Positions 4,691 to 5,020 are shown, counted from the stretch's first letter. The stretch is DNA of 11,826 nucleotides from a virus (IMGVR_UViG_2778261065_000019); one strand, 5' to 3'. The notes: a model not told the origin generated them from the sequence alone. Made by a program: numbers and translations.

Positions 4691-4720
4691 AGTAAGAAAT
4701 TCCTCTTTGACTTAAAAAAT

Positions 4721-4746
4721 CAGAACTGGATGTTCATCCAGTTCTG
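4721..4746. promoter_or_regulatory. 26-bp perfect palindrome (12-bp arms, 2-bp spacer) abutting the capsid-operon promoter
   Basis: CAGAACTGGATG-tt-CATCCAGTTCTG, flanked by A7 on the plus side (T7 after it on the minus strand). Directly downstream of the minus-strand -10 element, so it is either an operator over the transcription start or a terminator for read-through transcripts. Confidence 0.5.
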
Positions 4747-4774
4747 ATTATAATCATGATTGCATTTTATGCAA
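4747..4774 (-). promoter_or_regulatory. Sigma70-like promoter for the capsid operon
   Basis: Minus strand: -35 TTGCAT (plus 4769-4774), 16-bp spacer, consensus -10 TATAAT (plus 4747-4752). The predicted start falls inside the palindrome at about 4740. Confidence 0.5.
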
Positions 4775-4854
4775 TGATGTTGAGTTGTGTTGCAAATTAT
4801 GAAATGATGATCCCGATCATGTGTGTCAGTGCACCAAAAAGCCTCATATGCAAA

Positions 4855-4892
4855 AGCCCGATAAGCCACCTCTGACCTTATCGGGCTTTTTT
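4855..4892 (+). terminator. Intrinsic terminator on the plus strand
   Basis: 11-bp stem AGCCCGATAAG (4855-4865) / CTTATCGGGCT (4877-4887), 11-nt loop, then six T (4887-4892). No plus-strand CDS ends here, which implies an unannotated plus-strand transcript in the regulatory gap. Confidence 0.55.
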
Positions 4893-5020
4893 ATCTGCCT
4901 GCAAAGATGTCGAACAAAAATTAACCACAACCATCATCTTTTTTGCATCAAAACAATTAAAAACAATAAATTACGCTCATGATGATGATGACGATAAAAT
5001 CACAAAAATGCGCTTTTTTC

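Follow-up and report, generated by a model that had tools for sequence, protein, structure and literature searches.

The window analyzed here is a stretch of 11,826 nucleotides from the viral sequence IMGVR_UViG_2778261065_000019. It is an EcCICFT073-type phage-inducible chromosomal island (PICI) of Escherichia coli, and its long genes all lie on the minus strand. One operon (2059-4690, minus strand) encodes a 68-amino-acid (68-aa) protein, a capsid protein, a decoration protein, a 138-aa protein, and the Redirecting phage packaging protein (Rpp). A 415-bp gap separates the 68-aa gene from the SSB gene (5106-5528, minus strand). This gap contains the predicted promoter of the capsid operon and, directly downstream of it, a palindrome that resembles a binding site (box) for the repressor LexA. 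The promoter region contains the following features.

4790-4804: distal dyad TTGCA-N5-TGAAA, centered at about -58, 30 bp from the proximal dyad
4760-4774: proximal dyad TTGCA-N5-TGCAA, centered at about -28, overlapping the -35 hexamer and the spacer
4769-4774, minus strand: -35 hexamer TTGCAT (TTGCAC, TTGCGA, or TTGCAA in relatives)
4747-4752, minus strand: -10 hexamer TATAAT (6/6), 16 bp from the -35 hexamer
4718-4749: full inverted repeat with perfect 15+2+15 arms, from the repeat scan
4746-4721, minus strand: perfect 26-bp palindrome CAGAACTGGATG-AA-CATCCAGTTCTG
4724-4743: LexA-box-like 20-mer AACTGGATGAACATCCAGTT, with CTG at 4726-4728 and CAG at 4739-4741
4714-4719, minus strand: T6 run 3' of the palindrome, in the 5' untranslated region, kept even where the hairpin core is lost
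4688-4706, minus strand: ribosome-binding site AGAGGAA (4706-4700) and ATG (4690-4688) of the 68-aa gene; AAGAGG is invariant in alignment A5

Promoter, LexA-like box, and upstream flank

The close relatives were 80 IMG/VR loci, with capsid proteins 93 to 99% identical, and three annotated full islands. The 83 related loci contained 34 distinct promoter versions and 19 versions of the segment from the -10 hexamer to the T run. The divergent set contained three divergent E. coli loci and Salmonella-type loci, the latter retrieved via 68-aa homologues at 53 to 55% identity. BLAST against 5,426 complete E. coli genomes split the gap into two independent modules. The module at 4691-4892 always accompanies the capsid operon. 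It was present in 620 of the 5,426 genomes (~11%), and its hosts include CFT073, Nissle 1917, ATCC 25922, and O157:H7. Scans of genome contigs with the capsid protein and with a pattern of the -10 hexamer plus LexA box gave no match.

Read directly on the minus strand, TTGCAT (4774-4769) is followed by a 16-nt spacer, TATAAT (4752-4747), and then the palindrome, as a sequence-only reading of this DNA had reported. The 16-bp spacer lies within the 16 to 18 bp that separate the -10 and -35 hexamers of sigma-70 promoters. The same reading called this a consensus promoter. The description suits the -10 hexamer (6/6) but not the -35 hexamer, which matches TTGACA at three of six positions (four of six in some relatives). 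Because of that -35 match, a consensus scan made no call for this promoter; it found 13 promoter-like sites in the window versus 14.4 expected in shuffles. The -10 hexamer is invariant across the 34 promoter versions. It is also TATAAT in the Salmonella-type loci, and it is TAAAAT in the ETEC1732 lineage. At the -35 hexamer, T7 G8 C9 are invariant in alignment A3, and TTGC is invariant in alignment A5. The ribosome-binding site, the T run, the -10 hexamer, the TTGC of the -35 hexamer, the gapless 16-bp spacer, and the two dyads are conserved in all lineages compared. As judged by sequence comparison, these elements form a phylogenetic footprint, that of a real promoter and control sites upstream of it. 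We infer promoter activity and the position of the start from these features, and the minus-strand start is predicted at about 4739-4741. The region at 4700-4810 is predicted to be the sigma-70 promoter of the capsid/packaging-interference operon. The persistence of the -10 hexamer, TTGC, and spacer across the 83 loci and the divergent lineages agrees with the earlier proposal that a conserved promoter drives this operon.

An inverted repeat of the length found here is not expected in 11.8 kb. The 26-bp palindrome is perfect in the window, as first described. The run after it is A plus T6 (4720 and 4719-4714), not the T7 given in that description. Among relatives the perfect 26-bp form is a minority state. 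Its outer arms, CAGAAC...GTTCTG, occur in 3 of the 83 loci (2 of the 19 versions), and six further versions are perfect palindromes with other outer arms. What persists is the 20-bp core AACTGGATGAACATCCAGTT. Its inner 16 bp, CTGGATGAACATCCAG (4726-4741), have the form CTG-N10-CAG, and six of the eight central bases are A/T.

The core was scored on a LexA matrix made from the 18 E. coli boxes in Table 4 of PMC3009722. Positions 4724-4743 scored 19.4 bits with a heterology index of 6.98. This score was reached by none of 200 window shuffles, for which the mean maximum was 10.9 bits. Proven LexA boxes span heterology indices of 0.27 to 9.29 on the same matrix, and the window box falls inside that range. 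The indices were 6.54 for the ruvA box (CGCTGGATATCTATCCAGCA), 6.62 for uvrB, 8.3 for dinB, 8.4 for ftsK, 8.5 for polB, and 9.3 for dinG.

The box is kept at 16.3 to 22.1 bits in 18 of the 19 versions (82 of 83 loci), and its CTG and CAG are unchanged in all 34 promoter versions. Substitutions occur in the A/T-tolerant center (GATGAAC to GATAAAC, GAACAT to GAAAAT, and AA to TT) or in the flanks. A third kind, ATCCAG to ATACAG, moves toward the consensus (20.9 bits) and breaks the hairpin. The box scored 19.8 to 20.5 bits in other loci (L088-L091 and L093). In the Salmonella-type loci it reads GACTGGATGAAAATCCAGTA (19.8 bits) despite a different 5' untranslated region and an extra base in one outer arm, and it is the sole site above 11 bits in each ~5-kb locus. 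Two strong LexA-like sites, and no more, were present in each of three complete islands.

The box begins 4 bp past the -10 hexamer and spans about -4 to +16, so that it covers the predicted start. Relative to the -10 hexamer, this is a common place for a repressor. The conserved core and this position are consistent with the sequence-only proposal that the palindrome is an operator over the start.

A second LexA-like box, AACTGTACAAAAAACCAGTA, lies at 10567-10586. It is the stronger of the two (22.8 bits; heterology index of 4.7). It shares bases with the integrase stop codon. A TATAAT (10533-10528) follows ~35 bp downstream, ahead of an 80-aa open reading frame (ORF) and the AlpA-type gene. 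One of the half-sites has GTG in place of CTG in the islands of O157 and CFT073.

The two dyads are kept across lineages as TTGCA-N5-TG(C/A)AA, 30 bp apart. The distal dyad is the best-conserved intergenic block and lies one class I distance upstream. No further dyad copies were found elsewhere in the window. The positions suggest a repressor or a repressor/activator pair, which would be a second regulator besides LexA. The dyads do not appear to fit the boxes of CII, sigma-54, IHF, Fis, NtrC, MarA, or DnaA. The degenerate Lrp consensus from systematic evolution of ligands by exponential enrichment (SELEX) is matched at 12 of 15 positions per dyad, and the 30-bp phasing is Lrp-like; this assignment is a guess only. 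The resemblance to a phage intergenic region described below hints that the dyad ligand may be a host factor, not an island protein. On the island, the PerC-like protein is a candidate for the dyad-binding factor. A mimic of helper Q antitermination was rejected, since the promoter and the hairpin leave no place between them for a terminated leader transcript.

Two side observations concern the dyads. Positions 4759-4808 (1501-1550 in locus L094) resemble an intergenic region of virulent T1-like Drexlerviridae phages of E. coli. The identity is 77 to 81% over 50 bp with a borderline best E value of 0.009, and the phage region shares both dyads, the 30-bp spacing, and TGATG tails. The window also encodes a PerC/ANR-like small regulator (660-1031, minus strand; PHROG "transcriptional activator" families) at the far end of the island. 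In CFT073 and O157, the PerC-family gene adjoins the capsid-operon promoter on its upstream side.

The upstream flank contains two hairpins, T1 and T2, with a cos site between them.

4852-4892: hairpin T2 (A4, 10-bp GC-rich stem, 11-nt loop, T6), the 5' boundary of the capsid-operon module
4856-4865 and 4877-4886, plus strand: T2 arms GCCCGATAAG and CTTATCGGGC, with T6 at 4887-4892
4903-5075, minus strand: lambda-type cos site, between T1 and T2
5034-5023, minus strand: cosN-like GGGCGGGAGGCG
5067-5059, minus strand: cosQ-like ACGGGTCCT
5068-5089, minus strand: T1 (GCCGGA-GCAA-TCCGGC, then T6), the intrinsic terminator of the SSB/replication operon

T2 has an energy of -20 kcal/mol on the plus strand and -23.5 kcal/mol on the minus strand, with T6 on the plus strand versus TTTT on the minus strand. 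Its stem is invariant and its loop variable in the 83 loci. GC-rich hairpins of unrelated sequence occupy its position in the ETEC1732 and Salmonella-type lineages. The segment at 4903-5091 has counterparts, 88 to 91% identical, in Stx1 and Stx2 phages, where they are flanked by the lysis genes and the gene for the Nu1-like small terminase. It contains the layout ACGGGTCCT...N24...GGGCGGGAGGCG, which is that of lambda-type cosQ and cosN. This location and these sequences mark it as the island's cos site. It is inserted exactly between T1 and T2, which abut without cos in the CFT073 and O157 relatives. The Stx-phage-like identity takes in ~130 bp on the cosB side. The cos sites of EcCICFT073 are reported to have a cosB unlike that of the helpers. 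The island in the window, with its helper-like cosB side, may therefore use helper terminase recognition more directly.

Predicted LexA control and alternative readings

We favor, with a probability of roughly 0.68, a LexA-repressed capsid/Rpp promoter that would have an additional regulator at the two upstream dyads and an upstream flank made of a module-boundary terminator and cos. At the sequence level, the region has the properties of both an E. coli SOS box and a sigma-70 promoter. We infer LexA binding and SOS inducibility from the box. In an undamaged cell, a LexA dimer would occupy AACTGGATGAACATCCAGTT (4724-4743). RNA polymerase would be blocked because the box starts 4 bp after the -10 hexamer and covers the start. 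DNA damage would activate RecA, LexA would cleave itself, and the promoter would open. The same signal would induce the lambdoid or Stx helper prophages whose cos site adjoins the promoter on the island. The dyads at about -28 and -58 would provide a second control layer. T1 and T2 would insulate the capsid operon from the replication operon.

Several points weigh against LexA control. No transcription start site, LexA binding, or SOS induction for this promoter was found in the literature searched. In the ETEC1732/PapRG lineage (L085 and L086, 2486-2760), a sequence 5 nt shorter has taken the place of the core. The LexA box and the strong hairpin are gone there, and the promoter, the dyads, and the T run are kept. 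LexA control would thus be dispensable, since this lineage keeps the promoter without the core. The G at half-site position 4 (CTGG) is the rarer variant, present only in ruvA, cho, and dinG among the 18 boxes. LexA binding alone does not explain the pairing-preserving changes in the outer arms. EcCICFT073 interferes with infecting lambda without SOS, and its alpA induction is SOS independent (PMC6092414); the operon would therefore also need another route of expression.

The palindrome and its T6 run may instead act mainly on RNA, as a minus-strand intrinsic terminator or attenuator against read-through from the replication/cos side. We consider this possible but rather unlikely as the main role. 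It would be compatible with LexA binding, and transcripts from the local promoter would evade it by starting inside the stem. In the terminator scan, 4749-4718 (minus strand) was called, with 14 pairs and then the T run. The minus-strand RNA hairpin of the window has an energy of -19.8 kcal/mol. Most relatives, including the Salmonella types, in which a bulge preserves the outer stem, have -14 to -18 kcal/mol; the range among close relatives is -9.4 to -20.9 kcal/mol. Pair 4744:4723 is U-A in 12 of the 34 versions, G-C in 3, C-G in 1, and U-G in 1, but it is unpaired in 17. The next two pairs change from A-U to G-U and once to G-C, and G-U pairing is possible only on the minus-strand RNA. However, the overall covariation score is only slightly above that of shuffles, which relatedness alone can give. 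The stem beside the U tract is AT-rich (5 GC of 14 pairs), and T1 and T2 are two canonical terminators already upstream. The ETEC1732 lineage keeps the T run without a terminator hairpin (-8.6 kcal/mol, different structure), and the invariant part is exactly the LexA core rather than the stem base. The full hairpin and T run, which the sequence-only reading described as a read-through terminator, could plausibly have that function, but the covariation is weak and two other terminators lie upstream. We conclude that selection acts on the operator and that stopping read-through RNA is a possible, secondary role. A very improbable reading is that a dimeric regulator of the island or helper (AlpA, PerC-like, 68-aa, or phage repressor) recognizes the whole 26- to 32-bp repeat and also acts at 1380-1401. 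It would explain a palindrome that is perfect and unusually long in the window and whose ends, CAGAA...TTCTG, also end the 22-bp palindrome at 1380-1401. The island does encode small DNA-binding-type proteins. However, the outer arms vary (CATAAC, CAGGAC, CACAAC, and CAGATC), often asymmetrically, and the Salmonella types have a 1-nt indel in one of them. The 1380-1401 region occurs in only 3 of the 84 loci searched, so that nothing co-varies with it, and no repeat copies of the shared motif were found elsewhere in the window. The 68-aa protein has no significant fold match and belongs to no family of known function. The LexA consensus fully accounts for the conserved core. The earlier idea of an operator thus survives with a different ligand: a helper late regulator, AlpA, and the 68-aa protein had been proposed, but the canonical CTG-N10-CAG core points to LexA. 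The data give no support to a protein that binds both this palindrome and the one at 1380-1401, since the 1380-1401 region is limited to the three closest relatives and the arms at 4721-4746 are CATAA, CAGGA, or CACAA elsewhere.

A third alternative concerns the plus strand, which also reads TATAAT (4749-4754), as had been noted, because the -10 hexamer belongs to the 8-bp palindrome ATTATAAT. This sequence might also fire from about 4761 and produce a ~130-nt noncoding RNA ending at T2 (4892). We judge such a bidirectional promoter unlikely. The RNA would carry both conserved dyads. Since its -35 position overlaps the box, it would also be gated by LexA. The plus-strand TATAAT is perfect, and both the window and the ETEC1732 lineages have the longer T run of the hairpin (T6-T7) on the plus strand. 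T2 and the minus-strand T1 are arranged back-to-back, as where two transcription units converge. In all lineages the hairpin ends ~133 to 150 nt from the -10 hexamer, and the first ~65 nt (5') of the putative RNA are the most conserved intergenic part. However, DNA binding would account equally well for the conservation of the dyads. Plus-strand -35 candidates match the consensus at no more than three of six positions. In ETEC1732 the plus strand reads TTTAAT, with A-11 lost, and T2 is kept nonetheless. Neither strand has a T run next to the Salmonella-type hairpin. An Rfam scan at E <= 1 gave no match in 4650-5100. The middle of the putative RNA cannot be aligned between lineages, and no shared structure was seen; the terminator accounts for its folding z-score of -2.8. 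The sequence-only reading had described an orphan terminator without a coding sequence and a divergent ~130-nt RNA. The hairpin is confirmed, but ORFs do overlap the region, none of them conserved. For the RNA, the hairpin position, the T run, and the -10 hexamer fit; the poor -35 match, the loss of A-11, the Rfam result, and the lack of a conserved ORF do not. A 39-aa plus-strand ORF (4756-4875) was rejected as a gene; its start is lost in at least 19 loci, and its C-terminal frame varies. More doubtful still is a combination in which one 32-bp sequence would be the LexA operator, a terminator evaded by local transcripts, and the gate of a divergent dyad-carrying RNA. If true, it would turn the capsid/packaging operon of Gram-negative PICIs into a two-key switch (SOS/LexA plus the dyad factor), distinct from the known AlpA/helper switch.

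The 1380-1480 segment is accessory and is present only in the three closest relatives. It contains the perfect 22-bp palindrome CAGAATGTAAATTTACATTCTG at 1380-1401 and then copies of (C/T)GCAAATTTGCA at 1421 and 1465.

Gene content of the island

The remaining features of the island, all on the minus strand, are as follows.

10585-11826: integrase
9864-10070: AlpA-type regulator
Ash/Icd-like region with C4 and isrK RNA matches
DUF4222 gene
6092-7846: D5-type primase
4484-4690: 68-aa protein, first gene of the capsid operon
3429-4484: lambda gpE-like major capsid protein (Pfam and PHROG matches)
3082-3417: gpD-like decoration protein (Pfam and PHROG matches)
2655-3071: 138-aa protein
2059-2493: 144-aa Rpp

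The window contains the PICI hallmarks: int, an alpA-type regulator, a primase/replication module, a cos site, Rpp, and chromosomal integration. It does not contain a full set of virion genes. In E. coli GB089, an island adjoining tRNA-Pro is 99% identical to its DNA. For the promoter/operator module, the identity with CFT073 is 95.5%; this strain carries EcCICFT073, the prototype E. coli PICI (PMC6092414, PMC6739421). The CFT073 homologues of the capsid and decoration genes are c1499 and c1500, and its rppA is c1503 (PMC6092414, PMC6739421). The capsid operon is therefore the island's capsid/packaging-interference operon. The 144-aa product matched the solved Redirecting phage packaging protein RppC (6hlk) with an E value of 6.5e-31. 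The 68-aa protein was considered as a possible ribbon-helix-helix autoregulator; it had no match in Pfam or NCBIfam. Its AlphaFold model (predicted local distance difference test [pLDDT] score of 73) is coil-helix-helix with no recognizable DNA-binding fold. Foldseek against PDB gave nothing below an E value of 1, and a PDB sequence profile search gave nothing below 0.36.

Two other regions gave RNA matches. Positions 8834-9032 (minus strand), inside the Ash/Icd-like region, matched C4 antisense RNA (75 bits) and isrK (80 bits) above the Rfam gathering score, and the c4 a1/b1 target was also matched (43 bits). This looks like a P1/P7-type c4-icd-ant immunity module within a PICI. Positions 5924-6005 gave weak Rfam microRNA-precursor matches on both strands. 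They mark a long stretch that can form hairpins. It lies in the 288-bp gap that follows the primase gene and is a likely place for the island's replication origin.

Significance and comparison with known systems

If LexA control is real, the box ties the capsid/packaging genes to the SOS signal that wakes helper phages. DNA damage as such would prime the interference and packaging genes, including Rpp, which redirects the helper terminase. This priming would be in step with the induction of lambdoid/Stx prophages and would possibly occur without any helper. SOS-inducing antibiotics such as quinolones would directly raise satellite functions that shape the transfer of Stx phages and islands. 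The prediction is easily tested, and it is widely relevant because the module is in ~11% of complete E. coli genomes. The box-less ETEC1732/PapRG lineage may be a ready-made natural control. How the capsid/Rpp operon of E. coli PICIs is controlled is not addressed in published work. In the literature searched, there was neither a report of LexA control of an E. coli PICI capsid operon nor one of expression data for c1498-c1503. The induction of EcCICFT073 described in PMC6092414 and PMC6739421 is AlpA dependent and SOS independent, and this promoter is not addressed there. In these papers, in a review of PICI cos sites, and in further searches, LexA appears only in the reference lists, for Staphylococcus aureus pathogenicity islands (SaPIs).

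The island resembles EcCICFT073 in its gene order (int, alpA-type gene, primase, SSB, c1499-like capsid, c1500-like decoration, and c1503-like Rpp). Unlike EcCICFT073, it has an Stx-phage-like cos, including the cosB side, directly upstream of the promoter module. It also carries the C4/isrK-Ash/Icd module and has its PerC-like gene at the far end. The box resembles that of ruvA. The halves CTGGAT...ATCCAG are identical, the heterology index is of similar range, and both boxes are placed over a promoter. Unlike the chromosomal CTGG-type SOS boxes of E. coli (ruvAB and cho), the window box is on a mobile element. It is embedded in a 32-bp inverted repeat with a T run and is thus also terminator-like.

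The closest parallel is SaPI operon I, the LexA-controlled packaging module of Gram-positive PICIs, as given in PMC5052747, which cites Ubeda et al. 2007. Its genes (cpmAB, pti, and terS) are unrelated to the gpE/gpD-like capsid proteins and Rpp of the window. The host is Gram negative, with a different LexA consensus. LexA control is predicted here from the DNA alone, and the box is absent in one E. coli lineage. Operon I is, like the capsid operon, a separate operon downstream of the replication module with packaging and interference genes. Both would have a host LexA operator, here a predicted one, on the operon's own promoter. With such an operator, SOS would prime packaging separately from the main helper-dependent switch, as it does in SaPIs. 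If true, the logic of SaPI operon I arose independently in Gram-negative islands.

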